Source: a virus
Lineage: Duplodnaviria > Heunggongvirae > Uroviricota > Caudoviricetes
IMG/VR virus record: IMGVR_UViG_3300044712_001463
Strand: one strand, 5' to 3'
DNA: 64,000 nt
The notes below the pieces were generated by a model. It was not told where the DNA came from and did not search any database. It saw nothing but the letters and a program-made list of their open reading frames with translations. The number at the start of each line of letters is the position of its first letter. Positions within the stretch are counted from its first letter, which is position 1. Positions 1,009 to 35,556 of the stretch are shown piece after piece. The position numbers and the translations under genes are program-made.

Positions 1009-2031
1009 ATGCAAGTGTGTGTAGCCATGAGCGGCGGCGTAGATTCTTCTACGACCGCCGCTTTGCTTAAGAGTCAAGGGCATGAAGTCTTAGGTCTTAC
1101 CATGAAGTTATTTCATGATAAGGACCAAAAGGTTTCTTGTGATAAGAAACTTTGTTGTGGTGATAAGGACCGGGGAGATGCCGTTTCTGTCGCTAGGCGC
1201 ATGGACTTCTCGCATTTCTCGGTCAATTATGAGAAAGAGTTCAAACAATTCGTCATTGATTATTTTATCGAGTCTTACAAGGTTGGAAGGACTCCAAACC
1301 CTTGTGTTCTTTGCAATGATAGGTTGAAGTTTGATTTTTTGCTCAAAAAGGCATTGGAATTGGGCAATGACAAACTTGCTACGGGTCATTATGCAAGGGT
1401 TGTTGAAAAGGATGGTAAGTTTCATCTTTATAAGGCAAAGCATCTTCCCAAGGATCAGTCTTATTTCCTTCATGGTGTAACCCAGGAGCAATTGTCAAAG
1501 ATTCTCTTTCCACTTGGCGAGTTTACCAAGGATGAAGTCAGAAAGATGGCTGAAGAATTTAATCTAGTCAACGCAAACAAGCCAGAGTCAATGGATATTT
1601 GCTTTGTTAGGGATGGAAACTACGCTAACTTGATTGGTTCTGTTGGCGACGGTTTGATTGTAGACAAGAGTGGCAAGGTTCTTGGAAAGCATAATGGTTT
1701 TTATCATTTCACCATTGGTCAGCGCAAGGGACTTGGTTTGAATGCTTTTGTTATTCAAATCATTCCAGACAAGAATATTGTAGTTGTTGGAGAAGAGTCT
1801 GACCTATATAAGAGTGAATGTTCTCTAAAAAGCATCAATTGGATTTCGGGAGAGACTCCTTCTAGTCCAGTTGAGTGTGAAGTTAAGATTAGAAGTGGAG
1901 CAGATGTTGTTCCCGCTATTGTAGATGGAATGACTGTTCGGTTCAAGAATCCAATCAAGTCAATAACACCTGGGCAGTTTGCCGTGTTCTATAATGGTGA
2001 CGAGTGTCTAGGTGGAGGGGAAATACAATGA
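1009..2031 (+). CDS. mnmA: tRNA 2-thiouridylase MnmA (s2U34 synthesis)
   Basis: PP-loop SGGVDSS near N-term; CVLCN, GHYAR and QSYFL motifs characteristic of MnmA/TrmU. Confidence 0.85.
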   Translation: MQVCVAMSGGVDSSTTAALLKSQGHEVLGLTMKLFHDKDQKVSCDKKLCCGDKDRGDAVSVARRMDFSHFSVNYEKEFKQFVIDYFIESYKVGRTPNPCVLCNDRLKFDFLLKKALELGNDKLATGHYARVVEKDGKFHLYKAKHLPKDQSYFLHGVTQEQLSKILFPLGEFTKDEVRKMAEEFNLVNANKPESMDICFVRDGNYANLIGSVGDGLIVDKSGKVLGKHNGFYHFTIGQRKGLGLNAFVIQIIPDKNIVVVGEESDLYKSECSLKSINWISGETPSSPVECEVKIRSGADVVPAIVDGMTVRFKNPIKSITPGQFAVFYNGDECLGGGEIQ

Positions 2032-2399
2032 GTCTAGAGCAATTCCTTAATGGTAAGTATGGAAAGGTTTTGGTTGAGGAACCCCATCCTCAATCAAGAG
2101 CATCTTTAGTTATGCTTAAAAAGCATCTTGCTATGCAGTTTGATCCTAAAGATGAAAAACTCCAGACTGTTAAATGGCTAGTCTTTCGAGATATAGTCTT
2201 AAAAGAGGTTCTTGCCAAGGAAGGGTCTCTTACTTGTCATTATTGCAAGCAAGAGAACCTTCTTATGGAATCTGTTGACTTAGACTTTCTTGCAACCCTT
2301 GACCATGTTGTTCCTGTGTCAAAGGGCGGAAAGGTGTATGATAGGGCGAACCTAGTTGTCGCTTGTCATAATTGCAACAATAACAAAGGAAACAAATAG
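2004..2399 (+). CDS. HNH endonuclease
   Basis: C-terminal HVVPVSKGG...ANLVVACHNCNNNKGN HNH motif; overlaps mnmA 3' end. Confidence 0.7.
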   Translation: MSRWRGNTMSLEQFLNGKYGKVLVEEPHPQSRASLVMLKKHLAMQFDPKDEKLQTVKWLVFRDIVLKEVLAKEGSLTCHYCKQENLLMESVDLDFLATLDHVVPVSKGGKVYDRANLVVACHNCNNNKGNK

Positions 2400-2402
2400 T
2401 AC

Positions 2403-2430
2403 TTGACAAGTTCTCGGACTTAGGTATAAT
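2403..2430 (+). promoter_or_regulatory. consensus promoter
   Basis: acTTGACAagt-16-TATAATgtag. Confidence 0.7.
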
Positions 2431-2503
2431 GTAGTCATGAGCCAGAGTCAACTCAACCGAAAGGAGACCAAAATGCTCGCCTGATTATTAGAACGGAGGA
2501 AAT

Positions 2504-3382
2504 ATGAGTCCTAGGAAGAAACCATCTAATAAACCACCACTATCTGGAGAATCAAAAATGGAAAAGCTCATTGGTTTCGGTATTGCACTGGCAATCGCTC
2601 TTATGCTTGCTTTCAGCACTTTCTTCACCGTTGATCCTGGTGCTGTGGGAGTCACCTTCAACCGCCTCACTGGTAAGACCGAAGTGTGTGAGCAGGGTGT
2701 TCACGGCAAGATTCCCCTTATCACGGCAGTTTGGGAGTATGATGTTCGGACTCAGAAGGACGAGCTTGAGGCTCAGAGTTCTTCCAAGGACTTGCAGAGC
2801 GTCAAGATTTCCCTCGCGGTCAACTACCACCTTCTGTATGACAAGGTGAACGAAATCCACACCAAGGTCGGTCCCGATTACGCTAACAGGGTTATTCATC
2901 CTGCCGTTTTCGAGTCCGTCAAGGCTGCTTCCGCGCTCTTCCCCGTTGAGCAGATTATCGTTCAGCGTGAGACTCTTAAGGGTCTTATCGAGAAGGCGTT
3001 GGGTGAGCGACTCACTGCTTATCACGTTGTTCTTGAGAGCGTCAACCTTGTGAATATCGAGTTCGACCCCGAGTTCTCCAAGGCTGTCGAGAGCAAGCAG
3101 ATTGAGGAGCAGAAGATTAAGACTGCCCAGTATCAGCGCCTCCAGGCAGAGGAATACAAGAAGAAGACCATTCTTGAGGCTGAGGCTGAATCGCAGAGCC
3201 AGAGGCTTCTCGCCTTGGCTACCACCAAGGACGTTATCGCCCTCAAGATGATTGAGAAGTGGGATGGTCAGATGCCGCAGATTATGACTGGTGGCGGCTC
3301 GAACATGCTGATGAACATCGGCAACCTTCCTACGAGGGCTCCGAAGCCAAAGTCGGAGTCTAAGGAAGCCGACAAGGAGTAA
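2504..3382 (+). CDS. SPFH/band-7 (prohibitin-like) protein
   Basis: N-terminal TM helix, SPFH core, coiled-coil QIEEQKIKTAQYQRLQAEE; good RBS. Confidence 0.7.
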   Translation: MSPRKKPSNKPPLSGESKMEKLIGFGIALAIALMLAFSTFFTVDPGAVGVTFNRLTGKTEVCEQGVHGKIPLITAVWEYDVRTQKDELEAQSSSKDLQSVKISLAVNYHLLYDKVNEIHTKVGPDYANRVIHPAVFESVKAASALFPVEQIIVQRETLKGLIEKALGERLTAYHVVLESVNLVNIEFDPEFSKAVESKQIEEQKIKTAQYQRLQAEEYKKKTILEAEAESQSQRLLALATTKDVIALKMIEKWDGQMPQIMTGGGSNMLMNIGNLPTRAPKPKSESKEADKE

Positions 3383-3403
3383 GTAGTTTAATTAAGCAAA
3401 TAA

Positions 3404-3433
3404 AAGCCCATGGCTAACGCTGTGGGCTTTTTT
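3404..3433 (+). terminator. rho-independent terminator
   Basis: agcccatgg...ctgtgggctttttt. Confidence 0.6.
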
Positions 3434-3435
3434 GC

Positions 3436-3463
3436 TTGACAAGTATCGCATCCTGGATATAAT
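3436..3463 (+). promoter_or_regulatory. consensus promoter
   Basis: gcTTGACAagt-16-TATAATAgag. Confidence 0.7.
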
Positions 3464-3497
3464 AGAGTCATGGAAGCAAACTCTCTAGGAGGAAGCC

Positions 3498-3788
3498 ATG
3501 ACTATCTTCTCGAAACTCCGTCAGGAAATGGAAAACACCTATCAATCAAAGCACCTTGCTCTTGTTAGGTTATACAGCCACAAGATAGTCTCAATGCAGG
3601 TGGCTGTATGGTCAATGTTGATTCTAGGAGCCCTTCTAGGGCTCTCTAGCCGCCTTGTAGAGGGCTTTAGCGGTGTTATCCTTATCGTTATCGGGTTTGC
3701 AGCCTGGATAGTAGCCTTCTTCTATCAAAGGGAGTTAGAAGAGGTCTTGGACCGGCTTATCAGGTTTAAGGAGAATTACAATCTTTAA
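3498..3788 (+). CDS. small membrane protein (2 TM helices)
   Basis: RBS aggagg; hydrophobic helices; own promoter and terminator. Confidence 0.5.
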   Translation: MTIFSKLRQEMENTYQSKHLALVRLYSHKIVSMQVAVWSMLILGALLGLSSRLVEGFSGVILIVIGFAAWIVAFFYQRELEEVLDRLIRFKENYNL

Positions 3789-3809
3789 AAACCGCATCGT
3801 GGAACCTAA

Positions 3810-4467: not shown

Positions 4468-4971
4468 ATGATAAGTTATAGGGAATCATCCTCTAATCCA
4501 ATACCATTGGATAAAAAAGTAGCACGACAACTTTCTAATGATTTATATAATTTGATTTATGAAAGAGTAAGCAAAAATAAATCAGATAAAATAGAAAGCC
4601 ATATCCAAAATGGTGAAACAATTTATACGGAAATAAACCTTAAAAATGTTAAGGGAGAGGATGTTTCCTGTAAGATAATAATCTTTTCAGAAAAAGAAGA
4701 AAGAAATGTTTTTGATGATGAGATTGTAGTTGGTTCTAATTTTTACAAAAAAGACAATGAAAACATAATAACAATAAACTTAAATACAAACAAAACTGGA
4801 AAAGAAATAGAAGACAACAAAGATGAAACAGAGAAACAGATATACTATAAATTACTTCATGAGATGACTCATTTAGTTGATGTTGATGTAAAAAATGACT
4901 ATCAAGATGATGGAAGAATAAACCCAGAGAAATACTTTAAAAATAAGTTTGAACAAAATGCATTTATTTAA
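4468..4971 (+). CDS. MISYRE-leader protein with HExxH (HEMTHLVD) zincin-like motif
   Basis: Starts MISYRE like array family but lacks NLFESLNKQ; HExxH motif. Confidence 0.5.
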   Translation: MISYRESSSNPIPLDKKVARQLSNDLYNLIYERVSKNKSDKIESHIQNGETIYTEINLKNVKGEDVSCKIIIFSEKEERNVFDDEIVVGSNFYKKDNENIITINLNTNKTGKEIEDNKDETEKQIYYKLLHEMTHLVDVDVKNDYQDDGRINPEKYFKNKFEQNAFI

Positions 4972-4989
4972 ACAATAGTTGAAGAGTTT

Positions 4990-5178
4990 TTGGATGAAAT
5001 AAAATTATCAAATGTTAAGTTTTCAGAATTGAGCCAAAATCAAAAGTATGATTTTATAAATAGAATACTATTTAACATTGAAGATTATCAGAATAATTTA
5101 AACATCCTAAATGAAGAAATAAAAAAGAGAATCATACAAGTAATATATCATCAATTGGATAAAAATGAAAAACGGTGA
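4990..5178 (+). CDS. hypothetical protein
   Basis: AT-rich small ORF. Confidence 0.35.
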   Translation: MDEIKLSNVKFSELSQNQKYDFINRILFNIEDYQNNLNILNEEIKKRIIQVIYHQLDKNEKR

Positions 5179-5455
5179 TATTTATAAATCAAAAAATAGC
5201 AATGAGTATATTAGAATAATAGGCTGTAATCCTATTGGCACAACTATTTTATCGAAAAAAACAGCCAAGAAAAACATGATAGAAAATGATGCGGATAGAT
5301 TTCTTCCTCCAAAGATATTGGCTTGTAAAGAGAATGGATCTTTAACATTGATTGGTTTTTCAAAAATGATTGAAGATTATGTTTTCTGCAATGAAAAGTT
5401 TGAAAAAGATTTTTGTTATCCTTCTATTTTTAAAAATGATAAAACTCCTCAATAA
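5165..5455 (+). CDS. hypothetical protein
   Basis: 96 aa ORF coupled to upstream. Confidence 0.4.
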   Translation: MKNGDIYKSKNSNEYIRIIGCNPIGTTILSKKTAKKNMIENDADRFLPPKILACKENGSLTLIGFSKMIEDYVFCNEKFEKDFCYPSIFKNDKTPQ

Positions 5456-5462
5456 AGACATA

Positions 5463-6029
5463 GTGATTACCGAGTTGCAGCATCAGAAATGCAGAGAGTT
5501 TGCAGAACAATCTGCCGCGACTCATTTTCAGCACTATGAAAAGAGGGGTCAGTCAGACCATAATAGGATTGTCGAGCAAATCCTTGTAGGCAAACTCGGA
5601 GAAGTTGCAGTATATAAGTTTCTGAGTCAATACAAGGATTGCTCGAAGCCTGATTTCAATATTTATCCAAGTGGTAAAACATTTGATTCAGATATAAAGT
5701 GGAGACACTATAGAGTTCATGTGAAGACTCAAGACAAAGAGTCCGCTGAACTATTTGGTTTATCTTGGACCTTTCAAAAGTCAAATGCTACTGGAAATGA
5801 CTCGCGTGGGCATAATGACCACGGAGTTTTTAAGAACTATGACAAGGATGATCTCATATTCTTTTGCAATATAAAAAACGATAGGCTTGTTAGAATTTGT
5901 GCATCAGTTGATGCAAAGACCCTCCATGAAAAACACCTGTTTGCCCTCCCAGTCAAACAATCTCTTCAAGAATCCAAACGCTGCGTCTATTATAATATGC
6001 TTGAAGAGTCCCTAAATGAAAAGCAATGA
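5463..6029 (+). CDS. putative PD-(D/E)xK (restriction-endonuclease-fold) nuclease; start uncertain (GTG 5463; alternatives TTG 5370 / ATG 5379)
   Basis: GKLGEVAV...SKPDFNIY...DSDIKW = E / PD / (D)xK spacing like Hjc-type nucleases; 3' end overlaps dam start. Confidence 0.45.
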   Translation: MITELQHQKCREFAEQSAATHFQHYEKRGQSDHNRIVEQILVGKLGEVAVYKFLSQYKDCSKPDFNIYPSGKTFDSDIKWRHYRVHVKTQDKESAELFGLSWTFQKSNATGNDSRGHNDHGVFKNYDKDDLIFFCNIKNDRLVRICASVDAKTLHEKHLFALPVKQSLQESKRCVYYNMLEESLNEKQ

Positions 6030-6825
6030 CCTCGGACATATTTTCCGCTATCCTGGCGGAAAAAAGAAACTCTTCCCTAAAATACAGCCTTTTCTATTTC
6101 CTTTAATAGAGAAGAATAAATCATTTGCCGAGCCATTTGTAGGTGGCGGTTCTGTTATGATTGAAGTTGCTAAGGCTTTCAATGATATCCCTATTTTCAT
6201 TAATGATAAAAACGAAGGAGTGTCTGCGTTTTGGGAAATGATTAATTCACCAGAAGAAGATGTTAACGCATTATTCGAATTAATAAAGAGGCGTCCGACT
6301 ATTGATATATTTAATCAGCTCAGAATAAATAGCCATAAAACGAAAATACAAAAGGCTTATAACCTATTATTCATGAACAGATGTTGTTTCAGTGGTATTG
6401 AAACTGCTGGTCCTATTGGCGGTATGGAGCAATCTAGTAAATGGAAAATTGATTGCAGATATAATGCCGATAAAATAATTGCGAGCATTAATTATCTAAG
6501 AGATTTATTAAAGGGAAGATTAATTGTCTCCAATGATGATGTAATTGATTTTATTAAAAGAAATAAACCGGCATTTTATTTAGATCCTCCCTATTATGAA
6601 AAGGGGGATTCTCTTTATCCAGTTAAAATGGACCATGATGAGCATTTGAAGTTAGCGGATTTACTTAAATCAAAAGAAGACTGGGTATTATCATATGATG
6701 AACATCCTGAAATAAGAAAGATTTATGACTTTGCAACAATAAAAGAAATTAATGCTCGATATTCAATTGACGGCAAAAAAGATAATTGGAAAAATACACA
6801 TGAATTAATTATTTATCGGGGATAA
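6016..6825 (+). CDS. dam: DNA adenine methyltransferase, Dam/D12 class
   Basis: YPGGKKKL, EPFVGGGS (SAM site), DPPY catalytic motif. Confidence 0.85.
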   Translation: MKSNDLGHIFRYPGGKKKLFPKIQPFLFPLIEKNKSFAEPFVGGGSVMIEVAKAFNDIPIFINDKNEGVSAFWEMINSPEEDVNALFELIKRRPTIDIFNQLRINSHKTKIQKAYNLLFMNRCCFSGIETAGPIGGMEQSSKWKIDCRYNADKIIASINYLRDLLKGRLIVSNDDVIDFIKRNKPAFYLDPPYYEKGDSLYPVKMDHDEHLKLADLLKSKEDWVLSYDEHPEIRKIYDFATIKEINARYSIDGKKDNWKNTHELIIYRG

Positions 6826-6827
6826 AT

Positions 6828-7403
6828 ATGAAAAAGATAATCAATGTAGGCTGTGATTTAGATGGTTGTGTATTTGATTTTTCTGATAATTTCAGGAAAA
6901 GCATGCTGAAGTATTATAGTACCGTTGCATTAAGTAGGGACCAGAAGAAATGCAGAGAATTATTAATGGCATTTATTGATGAACACACAAAAGAATGCTT
7001 TGAACTTCCTATTTATTCTGATTGTGATAAAGTATTATCCAAATTAAATAAAATGGGCAAGAAAATAACCTTTATTACGGCTAGGGGAACCCATAACAAG
7101 GGAAAGGTATTAAAAGAAATAAAACAAATTACAAAAAATAGTCTTAATAAAAAAATGAAATTCCCATATAAATTAAAATATAGCGATGAAAAATTCTTGT
7201 TTGCCAAAAATAAAAAGATTGATATAATGATTGAGGATGATATAGACAATGCAATTGCAATGAGTGAGTTTTGCCCAGTTATATTTTTTCCGAGACCGTG
7301 GAATTATGGAGAGAAAATAATAAATAAGAATATAATTCCAGTTACTAATTGGAGAGAGGTTTTATTTCTTTTAGAGAATTGGGAATTAATATATTATGAA
7401 TAG
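6828..7403 (+). CDS. HAD-family 5'(3')-deoxyribonucleotidase-like phosphatase
   Basis: N-terminal DLDGCVFDF (DxDG motif I), downstream ITFITARG and MIEDD motifs. Confidence 0.6.
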   Translation: MKKIINVGCDLDGCVFDFSDNFRKSMLKYYSTVALSRDQKKCRELLMAFIDEHTKECFELPIYSDCDKVLSKLNKMGKKITFITARGTHNKGKVLKEIKQITKNSLNKKMKFPYKLKYSDEKFLFAKNKKIDIMIEDDIDNAIAMSEFCPVIFFPRPWNYGEKIINKNIIPVTNWREVLFLLENWELIYYE

Positions 7404-7596
7404 ATACAAGTTTGTATTAAAAACAAAAAAAGAAGAAACATGTCCTTGGTGTGATGTTGAAATAAAGGACTGTAAGTGCTTTAAAAGAAAACCATTAAAC
7501 ATACCGGATTTAGATAAATACCAAATACCAGAAAATCTTAGAATTAAATTTCCACATACGGAGGAAGGTAATGATAAAGGCAAAAAAGAAGATTAA
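7396..7596 (+). CDS. small Cys-containing protein (CPWC...CKC)
   Basis: 66 aa; overlaps neighbours. Confidence 0.35.
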   Translation: MNRYKFVLKTKKEETCPWCDVEIKDCKCFKRKPLNIPDLDKYQIPENLRIKFPHTEEGNDKGKKED

Positions 7597-7942
7597 TTCT
7601 TATGGAATGAAGAATTATGAGATGATTTCCCTTGACACAATAAAAGGGACTAGCGGAATTACATTTTATTTAATGGACGATGACATTGTTCCTCCAAAGC
7701 CATATACGACCTATAGCGCCATTGAGGAGAGTTCTCAGAAGGCAATAGAGGTTCTTAGGAATAGAATGCTCCTTAATAAGGATGGTTCGGTATTTTTAAT
7801 GCCAGACCATGGTTGGCCTTTAATGGTAACGATGCCATGGCACCAAGAAGCCTGGATGGTTGGGTGTTGGCTTCATAAAGAAGAGTTCGAAAAGTGGGTT
7901 TTAGATGGTAAGATTGAAAAGAAGCAGATAGCGAAGTTTTGA
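7571..7942 (+). CDS. hypothetical protein
   Basis: 123 aa; followed by strong terminator. Confidence 0.4.
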   Translation: MIKAKKKINSYGMKNYEMISLDTIKGTSGITFYLMDDDIVPPKPYTTYSAIEESSQKAIEVLRNRMLLNKDGSVFLMPDHGWPLMVTMPWHQEAWMVGCWLHKEEFEKWVLDGKIEKKQIAKF

Positions 7943-7964
7943 TTGAAAAACAAGCAAAAACATA

Positions 7965-7998
7965 AGAGGGGATTCTTCGGAATCCCCTTATTTTTTTT
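7965..7998 (+). terminator. rho-independent terminator
   Basis: gaggggattc-ttcg-gaatccccttatttttttt. Confidence 0.75.
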
Positions 7999-8087
7999 AT
8001 AAAAAAGTAATAGTAAGAAGCCTTAAAATCTCTCAAAAAGGATTGAAATGAAACGGGAATCTTCCCTCAAGTCTTTAAAAGAGATAA

Positions 8088-8618
8088 ATGAATAAATCAT
8101 ACGAAGAAGAAGAAGTTGCAAGAAATCCAGAAACGCAAGCTTATAAACTCATCGAACTAAGCAGAAGCCTCAAGTCTCATGTTCGTGGGATTATAGCAAA
8201 AAACCCAAGCACCCCAAAGGATGTTCTTGGAAGACTTTCTAAGGACTCTGACTGGACCATTAGGGATGCTGTTGCTTGTAATGTTGAATGTCCGAGCAAG
8301 ATAATACAAGATTTGATTGAAGACGAAAATCTTAGAGTAAGACTTTCAGCTCTTAAGAATCCAAATTGCACAGCGAACATGTTATCAGAGTATGTGAATA
8401 GTGAAAATGTAAGAATAAGGTGTTCGGTCGCTTGCAACAAAAATCTTCTTCCAACTTCCTTGTTAGAACTTAGCAAGGATTCTAACTGGGAAGTCAGATT
8501 GTCGCTTGTTCACAATAAAGGACTTACAAGAGAAGCAATAGAAAATCTTACACAAGATGAATGTGAGTCTGTAAGAGAAGAAGCAAAAATAAAATTATTG
8601 GAGTTTGATAACAAATGA
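8088..8618 (+). CDS. HEAT/LRV-type alpha-helical repeat protein
   Basis: Repeated ~30 aa units (IRDAVACN, VRLSALKNPN, VRIRCSVACN, VRLSLVHN). Confidence 0.5.
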   Translation: MNKSYEEEEVARNPETQAYKLIELSRSLKSHVRGIIAKNPSTPKDVLGRLSKDSDWTIRDAVACNVECPSKIIQDLIEDENLRVRLSALKNPNCTANMLSEYVNSENVRIRCSVACNKNLLPTSLLELSKDSNWEVRLSLVHNKGLTREAIENLTQDECESVREEAKIKLLEFDNK

Positions 8619-9034
8619 TTTCTTACCGAGCAAATCTATTTGATAGTATAAAAAAGCAGATTCCATTGGAGCCTGGTGATTTGGTTATAATTCCTGGTTC
8701 AGATAGAGAATTTCAACACTATATTATTGTCGCTCCCCAAGGAGAATCAGTAGGAAAAAGACAATGTAAAAAAGATGAGATATATGCATACTATTTTAAT
8801 CTCGGATCAAAAGCAAGCGCATGGTTAGAACCGCTCGAAGTAAGAAAAATTAAAAAAGTAAATCCTATAAATATTGGCAGACCAAAATATAGAGTTAGGC
8901 AAAAGATAGGCAAAGAAATAATTCAAGCTCTAACATTTGATAAGGGATGGAAATATCTTTTTTGTACTAATAATAATGAGTCTTGCGAATGGATAAGAGA
9001 ACAGAGCCTAGAATTAGGAGCAAATCCAATATGA
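8615..9034 (+). CDS. MISYRANLF(E/D)S-leader family protein (first array member)
   Basis: N-term MISYRANLFDSIKKQ; ATGA overlap with upstream gene. Confidence 0.65.
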   Translation: MISYRANLFDSIKKQIPLEPGDLVIIPGSDREFQHYIIVAPQGESVGKRQCKKDEIYAYYFNLGSKASAWLEPLEVRKIKKVNPINIGRPKYRVRQKIGKEIIQALTFDKGWKYLFCTNNNESCEWIREQSLELGANPI

Positions 9035-9486
9035 TTTCTTACCGTAATGCAAACCTATTCGAGTCGTTGAATAAACAGCTTTCGGACCCAAAAGAAATTG
9101 GGGCAATATTTGTATTTGATGACGAAGAAGAAGGTTATATTGATTTCATTCAAACTTCTTATAAGGGAGCGAATAACTTTTATAGACTGAACTATGGGAA
9201 AAACATATTTAAGGAAAATGGATTTTATGATGAGGTAAAAACTACCACTGCTCAATTTTCCCAGCAAAACTTATGTAAGCTTTTCAAAATAAAACCATCA
9301 GATGTTGACAGAATTGAATTTGGATGGGATTCGGATACTCATGAGGAATTTTTGAGAGAAATAAGAGAAAAGAATGGAATCATAGAAAAAGCTAAGCATC
9401 TTAAGATGCTTAACAACATATCATTTTATACGAAAAAAGGAAAGAGAATTTATACTAATAAAGGGACGGTCGAAGGAAATGATTAA
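9031..9486 (+). CDS. leader family protein (MISYRNANLFESLNKQ)
   Basis: Start set at internal ATG 9031 with ATGA coupling; listed 8983 start overlaps upstream. Confidence 0.65.
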   Translation: MISYRNANLFESLNKQLSDPKEIGAIFVFDDEEEGYIDFIQTSYKGANNFYRLNYGKNIFKENGFYDEVKTTTAQFSQQNLCKLFKIKPSDVDRIEFGWDSDTHEEFLREIREKNGIIEKAKHLKMLNNISFYTKKGKRIYTNKGTVEGND

Positions 9487-9841
9487 CAAAACTATAAAAA
9501 AAATAAAAGAAACCTCTGATGCGATTGCAGCGATACTAAAAGATTTCGCTAGTATAGTTGCTAGCATAGCTGCTATAGGAACGGCGTCTATAACTGGATA
9601 CATAGAAATTAAGAAACTAACAGTTGTCGCTCTTCAAACAAGAAAAGAAACCAACAAACAAATAAAAGAAATCAGAAGTTCTAGTCCTCTAGGGCACGCA
9701 ACATCTACCACAGAAACCGCTGCGATAGTTGGGATTCCTTCTCCAATCGAAACATATAAGATGGACTACAATACTGGAATACTCGCCTTCTCTCTGCTTG
9801 TCATTCCTGTCATCTGGTTCTTCAAGAAAAAGAAGTCATGA
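9479..9841 (+). CDS. membrane protein (N-amphipathic, C-terminal TM)
   Basis: Hydrophobic C-term LAFSLLVIPVIWFF + KKKK. Confidence 0.45.
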   Translation: MINKTIKKIKETSDAIAAILKDFASIVASIAAIGTASITGYIEIKKLTVVALQTRKETNKQIKEIRSSSPLGHATSTTETAAIVGIPSPIETYKMDYNTGILAFSLLVIPVIWFFKKKKS

Positions 9842-10269
9842 ACTTAATCTCCTTCAGAAAAATTGGAAGTTCTGTTGAGTTATTTTCTTTAGGAGAAAGC
9901 AAGGATACTAGTTGGATTGGCTATGGCGTCTACTTTACAGACAATATTGATAAGATAAAAGAAAAAGGCTTGAGTGACATATTCTCAATTTATATTCCAA
10001 ATAAAGATCGTTTTTTGAACTTAGATAAATCATTAAAAGAACAAAGTGATTATATAAAAGAACTTTTGTCTAAGTTTGATTCAGAAATCTCTGGTAGCCA
10101 ATTATATGATTCGTTTCGCAGGTCTATGGGTAGCGCAGAAAATGTTTCTAAGCATTTGAATGATTTAGGAATTAACGGACTATATACAAGCAGAGATAAT
10201 TCCTTATGGTCCACAATGTTTGTGATATGGGACGATTCAATTCTTGAAAACATGAGGAGAGTAGAATGA
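9838..10269 (+). CDS. hypothetical protein
   Basis: 143 aa coupled ORF. Confidence 0.45.
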   Translation: MNLISFRKIGSSVELFSLGESKDTSWIGYGVYFTDNIDKIKEKGLSDIFSIYIPNKDRFLNLDKSLKEQSDYIKELLSKFDSEISGSQLYDSFRRSMGSAENVSKHLNDLGINGLYTSRDNSLWSTMFVIWDDSILENMRRVE

Positions 10270-11564
10270 GAATTGACCCAATTGTTTTTAAGAACAACCC
10301 ATTGGAGGTTCCTCCAATCAAAGAGATTGAATCTCCTAAGATAAAGAAAAAGAAACAGGATTCAAAAAAACAAAACTTTAAAGATGAATTTCAAGAAGCA
10401 GTTGATAAAATAAAGAAACACTCAAACAGGAAGATAAACAAATACGCTTCGTCAAACAACAAAGGAGAGAATCAAATGAAGAACCAAAGGGATGAAAGAA
10501 TTGAGGAGATGAATAGGATATTTGCGGTGAGCAATATTGAGCACTTGTTTGCTCTTGCTGCCAAGAAAAAAGATGACGACGAAGAAGAGGAAGATACATG
10601 GAGAGAGGAAAAGGATCCTACTGAACTAGAAGACGAAGATGTTGTGATAGAAGATGAAGAAGAGAATCCAGTAGACACTCTTGCTATAGACGCCGACAAA
10701 GAGACTGGAACCGCCGACCCAGTAGATGGCAAAGGAGCGTTTGATGAAGCCGATCATTTTAGCCGCATGCAAGAGAGGCTTGAGACAATAAAGCGTCTTC
10801 TGAACAAGCGCAAGAAGAAGGAAGAGGGAAAGCCAGTTGAGCATGGTCCAGAATCTTCTTTGGAAACCATTCTCAATGAGACTCCAGAAGAAACCAAAAA
10901 GCGTCTTGAAGAACAAGGGCTTACTGTAAAGCCTAAGCGCGATGAGAATGCGATTGAAGAGATGGAAAAGTGGAAGAAGGAAAGATTGGATGCATTTGAT
11001 GCCAAGGTTAAGAGAGAGAAAGAGACAGGAGTGGTAGAAGAACCAAAAGACGAGTTCGATGATAGTATTTTTGAGGAAACTGAGACAGCAGAAGATGAGG
11101 ATGTCTCAGGTAAAAAGAAAAGACAGGAAGTTAACATCCAGTCAAATCTTTTACCAATTGAAGAAGTCATAGAGTTAGCCATTGGAGAAGGAGTTCTAGA
11201 AGACGCAGACGATGCGGTTACGAATGAGTCTAAAGATAAACTAAAAGAAACCCTAGATGAGATTTATGACTTGCTCAAAGAAAACGCAAAAATTTCAAAG
11301 AGACATAAGAGTGAAGAGAGCAAGGGTAAGCACCTAGCACATCTAGATGAAGTGCTTGCCGAAGAAAAAAAGAAAATAGAAGCACAGGTTGACAAAGAAG
11401 ATGTATGTCAATATCTGTTAGCCTACTATCGTAGACAATTAAGATCTCTTAGAATGGAAGAGGACCGAGCATTGCTTATGAGCATAGATGCAGATAAAAA
11501 GACAAAGAAAACCGAAGAGGAGACGGAGCCTCCCAAAGAAGAGGAACCTAAAGAAGAGGAATAA
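10266..11564 (+). CDS. highly acidic KE-rich coiled-coil protein
   Basis: 432 aa, long E/D/K runs (EEEEDTWREEKDPTELEDED). Confidence 0.5.
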   Translation: MRIDPIVFKNNPLEVPPIKEIESPKIKKKKQDSKKQNFKDEFQEAVDKIKKHSNRKINKYASSNNKGENQMKNQRDERIEEMNRIFAVSNIEHLFALAAKKKDDDEEEEDTWREEKDPTELEDEDVVIEDEEENPVDTLAIDADKETGTADPVDGKGAFDEADHFSRMQERLETIKRLLNKRKKKEEGKPVEHGPESSLETILNETPEETKKRLEEQGLTVKPKRDENAIEEMEKWKKERLDAFDAKVKREKETGVVEEPKDEFDDSIFEETETAEDEDVSGKKKRQEVNIQSNLLPIEEVIELAIGEGVLEDADDAVTNESKDKLKETLDEIYDLLKENAKISKRHKSEESKGKHLAHLDEVLAEEKKKIEAQVDKEDVCQYLLAYYRRQLRSLRMEEDRALLMSIDADKKTKKTEEETEPPKEEEPKEEE

Positions 11565-11565
11565 T

Positions 11566-17581: not shown

Positions 17582-17583
17582 GA

Positions 17584-19034: not shown

Positions 19035-19038
19035 TCAA

Positions 19039-25267: not shown

Positions 25268-25584
25268 TCGGGTTTTACCCCGTAGGCCAAAGCATTAATT
25301 TTGTCCGGCGATTGGAAACATTGTAAAACTTTATAAGAAACTAGTAGTGTGTGGTAAAGTAATAAAAGCCCATAGGCCAAAGGATAAATTGAGTAATTGT
25401 TGCAAATGGTCTATTGTGGTTTATTGTGGGTAGGAATAGGATAGATTGGATAAGAGGGGAGGTGTAGTGTCATTCACCTCTCTTAATAAGATCTACAAAT
25501 CACCACCCTACCCTGGTTTGTTAAGTCATATTAAGTTTTGTCTATCGTTAATTAATAAATCTTAATAAGAAGGATTTATACAAC

Positions 25585-26118: not shown

Positions 26119-26591
26119 TCTCTTACAGAGCAAATCTATTCGAATCTATTAATAAGATAAATGCGCCTAGGCCCGGGGTTGTTTATGAAGGTATTGTGAA
26201 TAAGGATTGGCCTAACCCGAGGCACAATGATATTGGGATTACAGAAGGGGAGCAATATATTTTCTCTCATATGAGAAATGGCAAGATGGTTCTTGTTAGA
26301 AAAATGGCTGGTTCTTGGATTTTTGAAGTAAGTCCTAACGAGATAAATAAATACTTTAAACCCATAGGCCAAGCAAACTTACAGGGGTATGAAATAGGAG
26401 ATAAGATATATAGTGAAATGTATGGCAATGGAACCATAACAGGGTTCGGCCTAGCGGATATTGAAAGAATAAAAGCATATATAATTAGAGAAGGGATTGT
26501 TGAGGATGAGGATGACAAATGGGATTTTATATCTGGTAACGGTCACGATGATCCTTTATTGAGCAGAGTAGAAAAAGGATGGAAGAAATGA
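26115..26591 (+). CDS. leader family protein, subtype B
   Basis: MISYRANLFESINKI; KPIGQANLQGYEIGDKI. Confidence 0.7.
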   Translation: MISYRANLFESINKINAPRPGVVYEGIVNKDWPNPRHNDIGITEGEQYIFSHMRNGKMVLVRKMAGSWIFEVSPNEINKYFKPIGQANLQGYEIGDKIYSEMYGNGTITGFGLADIERIKAYIIREGIVEDEDDKWDFISGNGHDDPLLSRVEKGWKK

Positions 26592-27073
26592 TTTCTTATC
26601 GTAAGTCCAACTTATTTGAATCCTTAAACAAAATGAACATCTGTAGTCCAGGTGATATTTTTGAAGGCATTGCAAATATGCCCTGGCCTCATAGCGAAAA
26701 GCAGGTATGGATATGGAAGGGAACTCGTTATATATTTTCACATATGTATAATGGTAAGATGGTTCTCATACAGAAGAACGAAGGTAGCAGGATTTTCTTT
26801 GTATCACCTAGCGAATTAAATAAATATTTTAAGCGCATAGGCCATGCTGATTTTCAAGGACTTAAAGTAGGGGATTATGTTTATACTGAGAGCAGGGAGA
26901 CTGGGACTTTCAGGCATTATATAATAACTGCCCTGGGCCTATACGATGATGACAGTCCGATGCCCTGGTGTAGGTGGATACATGATTCAGTTCCATTTAA
27001 TCCAGAGAGGCCAACAAACAGAGCAGAAAGATTTTACTTAAAAGAGATTATTAAGAATCCACATCAGGGGTAG
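26588..27073 (+). CDS. leader family protein, subtype B
   Basis: Start at ATG 26588; MISYRKSNLFESLNKM. Confidence 0.7.
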   Translation: MISYRKSNLFESLNKMNICSPGDIFEGIANMPWPHSEKQVWIWKGTRYIFSHMYNGKMVLIQKNEGSRIFFVSPSELNKYFKRIGHADFQGLKVGDYVYTESRETGTFRHYIITALGLYDDDSPMPWCRWIHDSVPFNPERPTNRAERFYLKEIIKNPHQG

Positions 27074-27078
27074 GCCAA

Positions 27079-27618
27079 ATGATTTCTTATCGTGCAAATT
27101 TATTTGAATCCTTGAACAAGGTTGTCAAAAAGATTACTGAGTCTGGGCAATACTGCGTAGGCCCAGACGGAATTGTTTATTTTGTTAATGCTGGCGAAAA
27201 CATAGGGGACTTTTATTTAATGTCCGAAAAGGGTAATGTTACTAAGACCACGAACCTTGATGAGATTAATAAGAATTATCAATATACGACACCTAGGCCA
27301 GGGTGGGTAACTAAGAAAGTCAAAGACGGAACTCGATATGCTCATTATCCTCATAGGGCTGGGGATAAATATGAGGCAAGAGGTGCTGACGGAAGCTATA
27401 GGCTTATATGGATTTCATGCGGTTGCTATATAACTTCATTTAAGAATTTTTCTAAGATGATGTTAAGTTATAGAGCTGCAACTATGCCAAATCCGGAAGC
27501 AAGGAAGCCAGAAAGAAAACCTAGTTCGATAACGCACGAAGATGTTCTCATCAAAGATATATTGGATGATAATAATCAATGGGTTAATAATGATACAAGA
27601 GGCCCAGGGGGATACTGA
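27079..27618 (+). CDS. leader family protein
   Basis: MISYRANLFESLNKV; internal MMLSYRAA echo. Confidence 0.65.
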   Translation: MISYRANLFESLNKVVKKITESGQYCVGPDGIVYFVNAGENIGDFYLMSEKGNVTKTTNLDEINKNYQYTTPRPGWVTKKVKDGTRYAHYPHRAGDKYEARGADGSYRLIWISCGCYITSFKNFSKMMLSYRAATMPNPEARKPERKPSSITHEDVLIKDILDDNNQWVNNDTRGPGGY

Positions 27619-27621
27619 TAA

Positions 27622-28059
27622 ATGATTTCTTATCGTGCAAATTTATTTGAATCCTTAAAGAAGCAAATCAACCCTGGGCCTCCTAGGGTTGGTGATTTCT
27701 TTTGGGATAGCGAGAACCAGGTATTTATTCTCAAGACATGTGACCAGAACAATTCAAAATATGTTTTCGGACAGGCTTATAAAGATAGGGAAGATGGTGA
27801 GTTCCTATATAAATTCAGAGATAATGCTACTATCACTGGCAGACGTTTGGGCAATGTTCTAGATATGAATCCTAAAGCGGCTGAGGCTTTTAAAAGGAAT
27901 GAGATAAATTGCATAGAAACATTCAAGTTCATACAAAACCTTTGTGAATGGCTTGACAAGGCAAATATAACCGAGCGTGGTATCATAGAATATGTAAGAG
28001 CCTATAAGTTCGGCTGGATTAAAATAACTGCTGGTGGTGAAGCAGGAGTAGAACTATGA
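27622..28059 (+). CDS. leader family protein, subtype C (GDFFWDSEN)
   Basis: MISYRANLFESLKKQ. Confidence 0.7.
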   Translation: MISYRANLFESLKKQINPGPPRVGDFFWDSENQVFILKTCDQNNSKYVFGQAYKDREDGEFLYKFRDNATITGRRLGNVLDMNPKAAEAFKRNEINCIETFKFIQNLCEWLDKANITERGIIEYVRAYKFGWIKITAGGEAGVEL

Positions 28060-28502
28060 TTTCTTACCGGGCAAACTTATTTGAATCCTTGAACAGGGTG
28101 GTGGCTAAACAGTATCAGCCTGGGGATGTATTTAAGGAAAGTGGTATTGCTGATAGTTTTTCCATCTTAATGATTGAACGGGTAGGTAGAGAAAGAGGTG
28201 GACAAACTCTTTATTGGCTTCATAGAAAAGGTCTTCCCGATCAGAACATAAAGCTTACCCAGAAACAATTAGATGACAAGGCTAGTTTTAATTATATTAG
28301 GCACTTGGACTTGGGTGACTGGAAGGTAGGAGACTTTTGTAAATTAAACGAATCCTTCCAGGGAGATCAAGAAACATATAAAATAGAAACAATATTCCTA
28401 GATAACTTCGATATGGTCAGGGTAGGCTTAAATAAAAACTGGAGTTATCATAATGTTGCTGAAAAAACCGTGCTGCTTGTCCATATAAAAAAGCCTTCCT
28501 AG
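28056..28502 (+). CDS. leader family protein (last array member)
   Basis: MISYRANLFESLNRV; ATGA coupling. Confidence 0.7.
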   Translation: MISYRANLFESLNRVVAKQYQPGDVFKESGIADSFSILMIERVGRERGGQTLYWLHRKGLPDQNIKLTQKQLDDKASFNYIRHLDLGDWKVGDFCKLNESFQGDQETYKIETIFLDNFDMVRVGLNKNWSYHNVAEKTVLLVHIKKPS

Positions 28503-29512: not shown

Positions 29513-29537
29513 GATTCACACAGGGAATTAGGAATTA

Positions 29538-29573
29538 AAGAGCCGCTCTCTTTACGGGAGTGGCTCTTTTTTC
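29538..29573 (+). terminator. rho-independent terminator
   Basis: agagccgctctc...gagtggctctttttt. Confidence 0.6.
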
Positions 29574-29602
29574 TTGACAAGATGGGTAGGCTTATGCATA
29601 AT
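29574..29602 (+). promoter_or_regulatory. cassette promoter (-10 CATAAT)
   Basis: ctTGACAaga...tgCATAATg. Confidence 0.6.
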
Positions 29603-29621: not shown

Positions 29622-29846
29622 ATGAGACGCAAGCGTTGTCCTGTATGTGGAGACCTTCCCGAGTATTGTTGCAGTGGAGATAAGATCGGTTTCTATGGTC
29701 ACTTCTTGGAGTGCCCTAGACATAGGTGTAGGCTCAGGACCCAGTATTATGATCATCCAGACAAAGCATTGCAAGCCTGGAACGAACGACTCGCACTCTG
29801 TTATGCAGGAAAGTTAGCTGACCTGAAGCCTAAGAGGAAGTCATGA
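29622..29846 (+). CDS. Cys-rich zinc-finger-like protein (CPVCG...CPRHRC)
   Basis: Promoter 29574, RBS aaggagg; ATGA coupled to tilS. Confidence 0.55.
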   Translation: MRRKRCPVCGDLPEYCCSGDKIGFYGHFLECPRHRCRLRTQYYDHPDKALQAWNERLALCYAGKLADLKPKRKS

Positions 29847-30475
29847 TCCGTTTTGAAAAGCGACTAGTGGATAAGAGCAAGCATGTGCACGTAGCGTGCT
29901 CAGGTGGAGTTGACTCCATGGCAGTGTGTGACTTCCTGAAGAGGGGTGGCTTCAATGTCCGCCCCGTCTTCTTCAACCATGGCACTGAGACGAGTCGTGC
30001 GGCGGAGATCTTCCTGGAGAACTATTTCACTGTAGGCTTCACCAAAGGCAAGTTGTATGGCGAGAAGCCTAAGGATAAGTCCTGGGAGGAATACTGGCGC
30101 GATGAGCGCTATAAGTTCTTCAACAGCCTAGGCTTGGAGACAATTGTCACTGCGCATCACCTAGATGACTGTGTCGAATCTTACGTCTTCAGTGCACTGC
30201 ATGGGAATGCCAAACTTCCCATGGTTCACCGTAGGCTCGGGCGCAGTATCGTCGTCCGCCCCTTCATGATGACCTCGAAGAGCGACCTAGTCGCCTGGGC
30301 TAAGCAGCATAATGTGCCCTGGATGGAAGATGCTAGCAACTTCGATGTCTCAGTGGGAACCCGGAACTACGTGCGGCATGCGTTGATGCCTGGCATCCTT
30401 CGAGTCAACCCTGGTATTTCCAAGGTGGTGGCTAAGAAGGTTAGAGAATTATACTTGACAAGTTTGGCGAAGTGA
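29843..30475 (+). CDS. tilS: tRNA(Ile)-lysidine synthetase TilS-like (N-terminal catalytic domain only, 210 aa)
   Basis: PP-loop ACSGGVDSMAV; FNHGT; TAHHLDDCVESYVFSALHG; RPFMM..K.DLVAWAK.H..PWMEDASN. Confidence 0.75.
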   Translation: MIRFEKRLVDKSKHVHVACSGGVDSMAVCDFLKRGGFNVRPVFFNHGTETSRAAEIFLENYFTVGFTKGKLYGEKPKDKSWEEYWRDERYKFFNSLGLETIVTAHHLDDCVESYVFSALHGNAKLPMVHRRLGRSIVVRPFMMTSKSDLVAWAKQHNVPWMEDASNFDVSVGTRNYVRHALMPGILRVNPGISKVVAKKVRELYLTSLAK

Positions 30476-30482
30476 GTATAAT
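30455..30482 (+). promoter_or_regulatory. cassette promoter driving tRNA(CAT)
   Basis: Overlaps tilS 3' end. Confidence 0.7.
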
Positions 30483-30493: not shown

Positions 30494-30570
30494 GGGAACC
30501 TAGCTCAATTGGTTAGAGCAAGCGACTCATAATCGCTAGGTTCAGGGTTCAAGTCCCTGGGTTCCCACCA
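30494..30570 (+). tRNA. tRNA with CAT anticodon (Met elongator or Ile2/lysidine substrate)
   Basis: Cloverleaf, acceptor GGGAACC/GGTTCCC, loop CTCATAA, CCA encoded; directly downstream of tilS and promoter 30455. Confidence 0.8.
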
Positions 30571-30758: not shown

Positions 30759-30797
30759 AAAAGACCAGGGGCTAGCAACCTCTGGTCTTTTTGTTTG
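30759..30797 (+). terminator. rho-independent terminator
   Basis: aagaccagg...cctctggtctttttgtttg. Confidence 0.65.
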
Positions 30798-33080: not shown

Positions 33081-33157
33081 GTCCCTGTAGCTCAGTTGGA
33101 TAGAGTACTGGTTTCCTAAACCGGGGGTCGCGTGTTCGAATCACGCCGGGGACACCA
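33081..33157 (+). tRNA. tRNA-Arg (anticodon CCT)
   Basis: Cloverleaf; acceptor GTCCCTG/CGGGGAC; TTCGAAT T-loop; CCA encoded. Confidence 0.75.
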
Positions 33158-33436: not shown

Positions 33437-33511
33437 GCTCTTGTAGGCTAATGGATAAACCTGGGGGCTCCGAACCTCCGATTCCAAGTTCGATTCTTGG
33501 CAAGAGCACCA
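33437..33511 (+). tRNA. tRNA-Arg (anticodon CCG), somewhat non-canonical D-arm
   Basis: Acceptor GCTCTTG/CAAGAGC, T-arm CCAAG-TTCGATT-CTTGG, CCA. Confidence 0.6.
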
Positions 33512-34491: not shown

Positions 34492-34494
34492 ATC

Positions 34495-34522
34495 TTGACA
34501 AGTTCCCTAATGTGAGTATAAT
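34495..34522 (+). promoter_or_regulatory. cassette promoter driving tRNA cluster
   Basis: consensus; 14 nt upstream of tRNA-Lys. Confidence 0.7.
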
Positions 34523-34535
34523 AAAGCTCACAGAT

Positions 34536-34611
34536 GGGTGTGTAGCTCAGTTGGTAGAGTAGCGGACTTTTAATCCGTTTGTCGTGAGTTCGATCCTCAC
34601 CGCACCCACCA
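34536..34611 (+). tRNA. tRNA-Lys (anticodon TTT)
   Basis: Cloverleaf, loop CTTTTAA, CCA; own promoter 34495. Confidence 0.8.
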
Positions 34612-34937
34612 TATCTTTGAACCAGGGAATCCCTCCTGGTAATCAGTCCTAGGGGAGACCATCGAGTTCGTCGTCGTAAGAGGTGCGGTGGGAGACCAAA
34701 TAAGCCTTTCAAGCTCTGGGTATGAGAAGTGATATCCCTCATATCATAGCCTTGATAGCATGTGTCCTCCCACCCACAGCCCATGGTGTAATACTCTCCA
34801 AGAGTAGCAAGTAAAACGCGGCGTCGGTACACGCCGACCCTAGGACAGGGTGAATAGATTTACCCAGGACTCGGTTCTTTAAGGCAGCGAGTTGGTGCCT
34901 ACGAGGAATCGGTGCTTCTGAGTCTTGGGCGTATTTT

Positions 34938-35012
34938 GCAGGCTTAATTCAGTGGTAGAATGTCTCGTTGCCAACGAGAATGTCACCGGTTCGAGCCCGG
35001 TAGCCTGCTCCA
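34938..35012 (+). tRNA. tRNA-Gly (anticodon GCC)
   Basis: Acceptor GCAGGCT/AGCCTGC, loop TTGCCAA, CCA. Confidence 0.75.
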
Positions 35013-35020
35013 ATAGTTTC

Positions 35021-35096
35021 GCCGCGATAGCTCAGTTGGTAGAGCACCTGCCTGAAGAGCAGGGTGTCGGGGGTTCGACTCCCTCTTGCGGCACCA
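35021..35096 (+). tRNA. tRNA-Phe (anticodon GAA)
   Basis: Acceptor GCCGCGA/TTGCGGC, loop CTGAAGA, CCA. Confidence 0.75.
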
Positions 35097-35106
35097 AAAG
35101 TTATGA

Positions 35107-35183
35107 TGCGGGATAGAGCAGCCCGGTAGCTCGTCAGGTTCATACCCTGAAGGTCGCTGGTTCAAATCCAGCTCCCGCACCCA
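35107..35183 (+). tRNA. tRNA with CAT anticodon (Met or Ile2), U1-A72
   Basis: Acceptor TGCGGGA/TCCCGCA, loop TTCATAC, T-loop TTCAAAT, CCA. Confidence 0.65.
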
Positions 35184-35477
35184 ATATTCCAAGAAGTAAA
35201 ACACATACTCGTTTTCATAGGTGCTCACATGGGATGCATGCCACATTTTAATTAGTAAGGTGCCCTTAGAGTTCTCTTCCAGAGCCTGGGGACCAAAGTC
35301 AGCGACCGCCCCTGAAGCGACGGTATCGGGACAGAGGTTCTAGTCAGGGACAGTGAAGAGAGTGTCAACGGTGTCGAGCCGGGGTAAAATCCGTAGAGAC
35401 GCAACCGCTTTGAGAGGGAGTCCTGCCCCAATAGGTATAGTATCAAAAATTAGGTCTAGGAAGACTTTCTTAGACGA

Positions 35478-35556
35478 GACTCCCTGGTAGTTTAGTGGCA
35501 AAACGCCCGCATTATAAGCGGGAAACGTCCGGCATCGAAGCCGAACCCTAGGAGTA
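35478..35556 (+). pseudogene. tRNA-like remnant with TAT anticodon loop (possible degenerate tRNA-Ile UAU)
   Basis: Good D-arm (GTTT/AAAC) and anticodon arm (CCCGC-ATTATAA-GCGGG) but defective T-arm and acceptor; embedded in long hairpin. Confidence 0.3.

Follow-up and report, generated by a model that had tools for sequence, protein, structure and literature searches.

We analysed a 64,000-nucleotide (nt) stretch of DNA from the Caudoviricetes virus record IMGVR_UViG_3300044712_001463 (the window), in which a gene for a short lysidine synthase, tilS, is followed directly by a gene for a tRNA with a CAU anticodon. The tilS gene (29843..30475, + strand) encodes 210 amino acids (aa) comprising the catalytic PP-loop domain alone, without C-terminal tRNA-binding domains, and the tRNA gene (30494..30570, + strand) begins after a gap of 18 nt. 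Both belong to a compact transcription unit of ~29.57–30.79 kb, which has a terminator-like hairpin directly before its promoter (29537..29569, + strand), is opened by a promoter matching 11 of 12 consensus positions (29574..29602, + strand) and is closed by a second terminator-like hairpin (30767..30790, + strand). A perfect TTGACA-N16-TATAAT promoter (30455..30482, + strand) runs across the tilS stop codon, with 11 nt between its end and the tRNA; judged by its position, it would initiate transcripts within a few nucleotides of the tRNA, on its upstream side, bearing out the preliminary description of this DNA, in which the CAU tRNA was said to lie immediately downstream of tilS under its own promoter. 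The unit also includes an open reading frame (ORF) for a 74-aa zinc-ribbon protein (29622..29846, + strand) resembling the Lar restriction-alleviation family (phrog_599, E = 1.7e-6). Since this ORF overlaps the tilS start codon it is probably co-transcribed with tilS, and nothing in its analysis points to a part in tRNA modification. The window as a whole also carries mnmA, and ARAGORN calls seven tRNA genes in it, the tilS-adjacent one included, which lie within 30.5–35.2 kb on the + strand and are all confirmed by Rfam at 51–72 bits; mnmA, the 210-aa tilS, the seven tRNAs and a weak UAU element were all recovered where they had been placed before.

The tRNA next to tilS was identified by ARAGORN and Rfam (72.1 bits). 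ARAGORN labels it Met but cannot separate the classes of CAU tRNA, so we turned to published sequence discriminators. In a survey of 234 bacterial genomes, G3, A3, C70 or T70 were confined to Ile(CAT) genes and never occurred in Met or fMet genes, and A11:T24 together with G12:C23 marked initiator tRNAs (PMC1635315). The window tRNA has G3:C70, an Ile-only discriminator that places it in the tRNA-Ile2 class, and has C11 and U12 in place of the initiator marks. It further shows C29:G41, the canonical CAU loop CUCAUAA with A37, A73 and an encoded CCA. Its anticodon arm, AGCGA-CUCAUAA-UCGCU, matches E. coli ileX at 16 of 17 bases, and global alignment gave 76% identity to ileX vs 69% to metT. Assignment as tRNA-Met by the best E. 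coli blastn match was tried and set aside as uninformative: the identities were 74–77%, global alignment favoured ileX and the published discriminators were clearer. At 4:69 and 5:68 the window tRNA carries A4:U69 and A5:U68 rather than C4:G69 and C5:G68, the pairs by which E. coli TilS chiefly identifies its tRNA (PMC12514573); the latter pairs are frequent in Ile2 genes, not universal (PMC1635315, PMC12514573). By these discriminators the tRNA is tRNA-Ile2 and not tRNA-Met, the class proposed earlier as a TilS substrate.

The arrangement recurs in other phages. We examined 80 IMG/VR tilS loci, ~480 kb in total (comparison loci are labelled with L-numbers). In ten of the 80 a CAU tRNA lies 8–63 nt downstream of tilS, representing seven distinct tRNA sequences; the 80 loci hold 14 tRNAs in all, of which 11 are CAU tRNAs and ten lie just downstream of tilS. 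Further CAU tRNAs were found downstream of short tilS genes at a gap of 66 nt in L007 and 9 nt in L008 and L009, and a G3:C70 CAU tRNA lies 310 nt downstream of tilS in L100, with one small ORF between. Altogether there are 11 distinct tilS-linked tRNAs from 11 divergent phage lineages, including the window. All 11 have a purine3:pyrimidine70 pair (G:C or A:T), A73 and the loop CUCAUAA, and 4:69 and 5:68 vary freely among the cassette tRNAs. Across the ten direct cassettes the TilS proteins are 43–73% identical (with one pair at 99%) and the tRNAs 65–86% identical, indicating that the linkage has persisted through extensive divergence. The pairing of TilS with a CAU tRNA, earlier proposed from this one window, is thus strengthened by adjacency conserved in 11 divergent phage lineages.

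One pair of cassettes bears on how the tRNA might be recognized. L059 (tRNA at 3640-3715) and L064 (3640-3713) encode TilS proteins that are 99% identical, and their adjacent CAU tRNAs are 72% identical with the same anticodon arm, GTCGT-CTCATAA-ACGAT. Between the two loci the tRNA body seems to have undergone natural replacement, a pattern that fits recognition via the anticodon arm. In L008 and L009 the tilS-linked tRNA-Ile2 is followed, after 5 nt, by another tRNA whose anticodon is CUA (10694-10768 and 4731-4805, respectively) and which ARAGORN reads as a Pyl tRNA or an amber suppressor; TAG may be recoded in that phage.

Sequence and structure comparisons identified the short protein as TilS. 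Its sole Pfam domain is the PP-loop domain PF01171 (E = 2.6e-25), and it scored 99.2 bits against TIGR02432 (lysidine_TilS_N), above the cutoff of 93.6, and 59 bits against the full-length TilS equivalog NF007942, whose cutoff is 606. Across 31 homologues the motifs SGGxDS (SGGVDS), HHLDD, RP, EDxSN and RNxIR are invariant or nearly so, and a conserved Fe-S-type cysteine cluster of the TtuA/TtcA kind is absent among these 31 aligned members. When the family profile was searched against PDB sequences, only the three TilS proteins of solved structure (five entries) were returned, matched over their N-terminal domains only. An AlphaFold model of the window protein (pLDDT 94.6) gave TilS as all of its top five Foldseek matches in the PDB (2e21, 1wy5, 1ni5, 2e89; TM-score 0.77–0.79), followed by TtuA structures, and it superposes best on the Aquifex aeolicus and E. 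coli enzymes. The type II TilS of A. aeolicus (PDB 1WY5, 2E21, 2E89) is the best match by both sequence and structure: its residues 24–229 align over the full length of the phage protein (28% identity; TM-scores in the range just given), and it shares the same PP-loop and TilS motifs. A 2025 study distinguishes just two types of TilS, type I with C-terminal domains (CTD) 1 and 2 and type II with CTD1 only, the CTDs contacting the tRNA (PMC12514573). In the window protein we found neither CTD1 nor CTD2, the acceptor-stem reader of type I, as its 210 residues align end to end with the TilS N-terminal domain only. The cellular type II enzyme keeps CTD1 and type I keeps both domains, whereas the phage clade has neither.

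This truncated form proved to be widespread in phage sequences. A protein-database search returned ~1000 relatives of the window TilS; the top 120 are 178–248 aa long, have no Pfam domain other than PF01171 and share ~50% identity with the window protein, and the top relatives lie on metagenomic contigs of up to 363 kb. An IMG/VR scan with a single TilS protein as query found nothing, whereas an alignment-based scan found short-TilS relatives on at least 422 contigs. Among deposited phage records, a short TilS occurs in the PA5oct/MIJ3 group (42.7% identity) and in two uncultured phages of ~640 kb. We also surveyed prokaryotes, using one genome per species for 185,579 species and keeping the best 80 matches. 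Among these 80, a single match reached at least 45% identity, a 206-aa gene on L100, and the others were at most 35% identical; the 13 cellular homologues that we measured are 295–460 aa long, with one further protein of 655 aa. L100 is a 7-kb contig in a Pelagibacteraceae single-cell assembly and holds the sole phage-clade TilS among those 80 matches; it is probably a phage contig that was sorted along with the SAR11 cell. By sequence, the catalytic-domain-only TilS forms a clade nearly confined to phages, and the 210-aa length, earlier regarded as unusual, is so only relative to the cellular enzymes, being the normal form in a large phage clade.

We then considered which genes such a tRNA might serve. 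The + strand array at 4468..28502 is AT-rich and is the presumed client of AUA and AAA decoding. We compared codon usage in the array with that in the GC-rich block of the same phage, which served as an internal proxy for the host. AUA occurs at 42.5 per 1000 codons in the array (48% of Ile codons) and at 6.7 in the GC-rich block (12%), an enrichment of 5.9-fold that ranks first among 61 codons; AAA occurs at 64.6 and 20.1 per 1000, respectively, and ranks third. The ratio of observed AUA to that expected from third-position composition was 1.13 in the array and 0.57 in the block, so that AUA is not avoided in the former and is avoided in the latter. These ranks agree with the earlier suggestion that the AT-rich genes over-use AUA and AAA. 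Neither Met identity elements in the tilS-adjacent tRNA nor a lack of AUA and AAA over-use, the combination that the preliminary description had named as speaking against its proposal, was found.

The same comparison did not extend to the rest of the tRNA set. The window had been proposed to encode a decoding kit matched to its AT-rich genes; this held for AUA and failed for the other tRNAs, which, besides Ile2 and Lys, read G/C-ending or start codons. AGG, CGG and GGC, the codons of tRNA-Arg(CCU), tRNA-Arg(CCG) and tRNA-Gly(GCC), are favoured in the GC-rich block instead of the array, and CGG is among the most depleted codons of the array. tRNA-Phe(GAA) decodes UUC, which the block prefers, as well as UUU, which the array prefers. 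The window has no phage tRNA for UUA, AGA, CUA, AAU or UAU, codons enriched about as much as AAA. The tRNA-Lys(UUU), which had been taken as a match to AAA, is not specific for it: it reads both AAA and AAG, and Lys makes up 9–10% of residues in both compartments, so this tRNA is not informative on AAA.

The second enzyme of the window, the tRNA 2-thiouridine(34) synthase MnmA, is encoded at 1009..2031 (+ strand), 28 nt downstream of a perfect sigma-70-type TTGACA-N16-TATAAT promoter (954..981, + strand). The protein is full length, with all three domains (PF03054, PF20259 and PF20258), and scored 410.5 bits against NF001138 (cutoff 284) and 340.7 against TIGR00420 (cutoff 236.95). MnmA proteins fall into C-type (CC-CxxC-C) and D-type (C-DxxC-C) classes (PMC11784392), and the cysteines of the window protein (KLCCGD, NPCVLCN and MDICF) form an intact C-type pattern. 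The candidate substrate, tRNA-Lys(UUU) (34536..34611, + strand; ARAGORN, Rfam), has the canonical loop CUUUUAA and a perfect consensus promoter (34495..34522, + strand) 13 nt upstream; it lies 32.5 kb from mnmA. Both genes of the earlier MnmA–tRNA-Lys pairing are confirmed; the pairing itself was overstated and reflects only their co-occurrence in one genome. The nearest mnmA relatives are diverse bacterial genes at 46–54% identity. We found only one phage-like relative, L097 (54% identity), with no tRNAs near its mnmA. Most tblastn matches sought as phage precedents look like bacterial fragments and were rejected, as was the mnmA attributed to 'Microcystis phage MaAM05' (L180, MW495066.1, 67331-80380), whose neighbours, an amino-acid permease and an oxidoreductase, look bacterial and not phage-like. 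The literature searched held no report of a phage-encoded MnmA. An HNH endonuclease ORF (2004-2399) overlaps the 3′ end of mnmA, which suggests a homing-endonuclease insertion beside a captured mnmA. We also noted an SPFH/Band-7 gene near mnmA (2504-3382) and another ~2 kb from tilS in L010 (12401-13312), a 150-kb phage contig unrelated to the window.

The remaining tRNAs are, all on the + strand and by ARAGORN and Rfam, tRNA-Arg(CCU) (33081..33157), tRNA-Arg(CCG) (33437..33511), tRNA-Gly(GCC) (34938..35012), tRNA-Phe(GAA) (35021..35096) and a second CAU tRNA (35107..35183). The last carries A11:U24 and G12:C23, and is ~84% identical to one E. coli initiator gene copy, a figure relative to that copy, which has A at position 29; the canonical E. 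coli initiator sequence presumably has G there. Initiator tRNAs are defined by a mismatch at 1:72 and a run of three G:C pairs (29-31:39-41). The window tRNA is atypical on both counts, with U1:A72 (a weak pair, not a mismatch) and A:U at 29:41, leaving two of the three G:C pairs of the anticodon stem; its loop is UUCAUAC and it has C73. Being initiator-like, this tRNA is not a likely TilS substrate, and we do not retain it as part of the proposed kit.

A degenerate tRNA-like element with a UAU anticodon lies at 35481..35554 (+ strand). It scored 32.1 bits in Rfam, just above the gathering score of 29, was absent from the ARAGORN calls and had a folding z-score of −1.9. Its anticodon loop is AUUAUAA, two pairs of the acceptor stem are mismatched, position 73 is G, a CCA end is not encoded, and its T arm spans 16 nt where the Rfam alignment expects 13. 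An exact-match search with its anticodon arm found no relatives in IMG/VR, and UAU tRNAs are poorly charged by E. coli-type IleRS (PMC3575796). The element is therefore present and degenerate, as had been described, and lacks a complete cloverleaf; it is a probable decayed remnant or pseudogene and lends no support to a functional kit.

The wider window is divided in composition, with ~32–38% GC across 4–28 kb and 55–64 kb and ~50% across 30–54 kb. It contains 32 perfect TTGACA-N16-TATAAT promoters, all on the + strand (954-54468, mostly 28692-54468). They share the extended consensus TTGACAAGT, often with a purine before TATAAT, and almost every small ORF of the GC-rich block has its own perfect promoter, an unusually high density. 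Within the AT-rich array, 30 paralogous ORFs, mostly of ~150 aa, follow one another head to tail, the stop and start codons of neighbours overlapping (8615-28502; ~32–38% GC), and many begin with MISYRANLFESL. Eight members compared with Pfam and PHROGs gave no match, and the description of the array genes as effectors accordingly found no support. Megablast against the INPHARED phage collection returned short tRNA matches only and no near-identical relative, and a Pfam scan of 20 further window ORFs revealed no other translation-related genes. From the promoter and gene layout, the PHROG matches and the relatives, the window is a probable early region, transcribed by host RNA polymerase, of a large phage.

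Viral TilS genes, phage tRNA-Ile2 and the idea of AUA supply are already known. The closest described case is that of PA5oct and MIJ3 (Wroclawvirus), Pseudomonas jumbo phages whose TilS, like that of the window, is ~200 aa long, catalytic-domain-only and 42.7% identical to it. MIJ3 is AT-rich like the window array (30% GC at the sampled locus) and uses AUA at 62 per 1000. Its genome has three CAU tRNAs (one G3:C70 and Ile2-like, one C3:G70 and one initiator-like), which lie 7–10 kb upstream of tilS (the Ile2-type at 9 kb) and are not adjacent as in the window. Two of them (L006, 10199-10275 and 10680-10756) are identical over positions 8–65 with differing acceptor stems, one being C3:G70 (Met-like, starting with C1:G72) and the other G3:C70 (Ile2-like); by sequence they may be duplicates with split identities. 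A putative phage lysidine synthase was reported for MIJ3/PA5oct in 2019 with its role left open; that report did not classify the CAU tRNAs, remark on the absent C-terminal domains or make a link to AUA (PMC6892783). Another phage TilS was reported for RsoM2USA (PMC8504454).

Other systems share parts of this logic. T4 tRNA-Ile keeps C4:G69 and C5:G68, where the window tRNA-Ile2 has A:U at both. T4 itself is not known to have a tilS. T4-like tRNA-Ile2 relies on host TilS, whereas that of the window comes with its own enzyme. Every T4-like genome encoding tRNAs has a minor Ile tRNA for AUA (PMC1524935), and a review records the detection of lysidine (k2C34) on a tRNA(CAU) of a vibriophage (PMC13191261). 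That chlorovirus TilS helps the reading of AUA has already been put forward (bioRxiv 10.1101/2020.07.06.190819); according to the available text of that preprint, chloroviruses, whose hosts are eukaryotic algae, combine TilS with tRNA clusters by the same logic as the window, and the same text describes no conserved enzyme–tRNA gene pair such as that of the window clade. In the literature searched we found no report of a conserved tilS–tRNA cassette, nor of a TilS without any tRNA-binding domain as an almost phage-only clade.

Collectively, we favour the reading that tilS and its neighbour are a self-contained AUA-decoding unit in which TilS acts on the co-encoded tRNA-Ile2, with MnmA probably thiolating the phage tRNA-Lys and host tRNAs, and we place its probability at roughly 65%. 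Catalysis, substrate choice and benefit to the phage, which we infer from the gene identities, tRNA class, promoter placement, conserved synteny and codon usage observed here, would run as follows. Using ATP and lysine, phage TilS would convert C34 of the adjacent tRNA to lysidine, switching it from a Met-accepting, AUG-reading tRNA to an Ile-accepting, AUA-reading one, which would supply capacity for translating the AT-rich array. Without its own enzyme, the strongly promoted tRNA would have to be modified by a host TilS adapted to a rare codon, and it lacks the C4:G69 and C5:G68 pairs that an E. coli-type TilS would need; a paired enzyme and tRNA would keep working across different hosts. 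For MnmA, the likeliest target is U34 of the phage tRNA-Lys(UUU), with host Lys, Glu and Gln tRNAs as probable further substrates, a link suggested by the specificity of the enzyme and the co-occurrence of the genes; such thiolation would help in making proteins very rich in Lys (9–10%).

Several observations weigh against this reading. All characterised TilS enzymes bind and discriminate tRNA through at least one C-terminal domain (PMC12514573), and the window TilS, unlike them, has no such domain. We considered whether a neighbouring ORF supplies the missing domains and rejected this: a profile built from 74 cellular C-terminal regions found no CTD-like ORF anywhere in the window (best E = 0.17), and no partner gene is conserved across all tilS lineages, the neighbours clustering by phage lineage only. 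Lysidine formation at C34 from ATP and lysine is, for the short-TilS clade, a predicted activity. Not all other tilS loci use AUA heavily (median observed/expected 0.68), and the codon comparison, being phage-internal, does not establish that AUA is rare in the host. No synteny or other comparative link between mnmA and tRNA-Lys was found. Finally, 70 of the 80 IMG/VR tilS loci have no tRNA within 3 kb, so an adjacent tRNA is not required by the enzyme, which may also act on host tRNA-Ile2.

This last point leads to an improbable alternative, that the short TilS acts mainly on host tRNAs, boosting the lysidine of host Ile2 or converting tRNA-Met as a form of takeover, with the adjacent tRNA a bystander. 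An enzyme without the domains by which cellular TilS rejects tRNA-Met would suit such a role, as would the many loci that lack a nearby tRNA. However, the tRNAs close to tilS are, with few exceptions, Ile2-type CAU tRNAs directly downstream, in 11 lineages and with TilS falling below 50% identity; MIJ3 has its G3:C70 Ile2-type tRNA elsewhere in the genome, so that tRNA-less loci may still come from tRNA-bearing genomes; and the anticodon arm was kept identical where the tRNA of L059 and L064 was replaced. The tRNA set as a whole, in which five of the seven tRNAs run off the AT-rich codon bias, could instead replace host tRNAs cut by anticodon nucleases or lost in shut-off, the enzymes maturing the replacements and codon usage being secondary. 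Known anticodon-nuclease targets include tRNAs for Lys (PrrC, RloC, PARIS), Arg (colicin-D-like) and fMet (VapC), and the window encodes tRNA-Lys(UUU), two Arg tRNAs and an initiator-like tRNA. Phage tRNAs are also reported to sustain translation while host RNA degrades (review PMC13191261). Nevertheless, the window tRNA-Lys keeps its canonical CUUUUAA loop, with no change that might evade a nuclease, and the AUA enrichment fits a supply role. The conserved enzyme linkage, moreover, concerns Ile2, for which we know of no specific nuclease. We regard this explanation as unlikely, though worth keeping in view.

Could the genes have been misread? If the adjacent tRNA were an elongator tRNA-Met and the PP-loop protein another tRNA-modifying ATPase, such as a TtcA/TtuA-like thiolase, there would be no AUA unit. 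The ARAGORN label, the best E. coli blastn match (tRNA-Met, 74–77%), the rank of TtuA next after TilS in the fold search and the absence of C4:G69 and C5:G68 all lean this way. We nonetheless hold it to be very improbable: under the survey rule (PMC1635315) a tRNA with G3:C70 is neither Met nor fMet, the tRNA is nearer to ileX than to metT, ARAGORN is blind to the CAU classes, and the protein passes the TIGR02432 cutoff, belongs to a family with no conserved Fe-S cysteine cluster and, by profile search of the PDB, matches TilS only. It is hardly credible, in turn, that the genes are recently captured passengers with no selected function in this phage. The diverse bacterial affinities of mnmA and the HNH endonuclease gene abutting it would fit such an origin, but the tilS clade is large and almost phage-only with invariant catalytic motifs, the mnmA and tilS units have their own promoters, and the ORFs are intact.

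Returning to the AUA-decoding unit, a bolder form of this reading is that the phage clade represents a third, minimal TilS architecture that recognizes the anticodon arm only and co-evolves with the adjacent tRNA-Ile2, giving a portable, host-independent and possibly orthogonal module. The apparent replacement of the tRNA body between L059 and L064 with an identical arm, and the freedom of 4:69 and 5:68 to vary, point in this direction, and we advance the idea tentatively, as a possibility with the odds somewhat against it. All characterised lysidine synthases depend on C-terminal domains for binding tRNA-Ile2 and for turning away tRNA-Met, whose anticodon is the same, and the phage clade is therefore a natural minimal system for asking how Ile2/Met discrimination works without them. 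The cassette looks like a portable AUA-decoding unit, and the tilS–tRNA pair could serve synthetic biology as a compact module for that purpose. For the phages themselves, it offers a concrete example of a virus that brings along a tRNA together with the enzyme on which the identity of that tRNA depends, and such a pair would free phage codon usage from the decoding capacity of the host.

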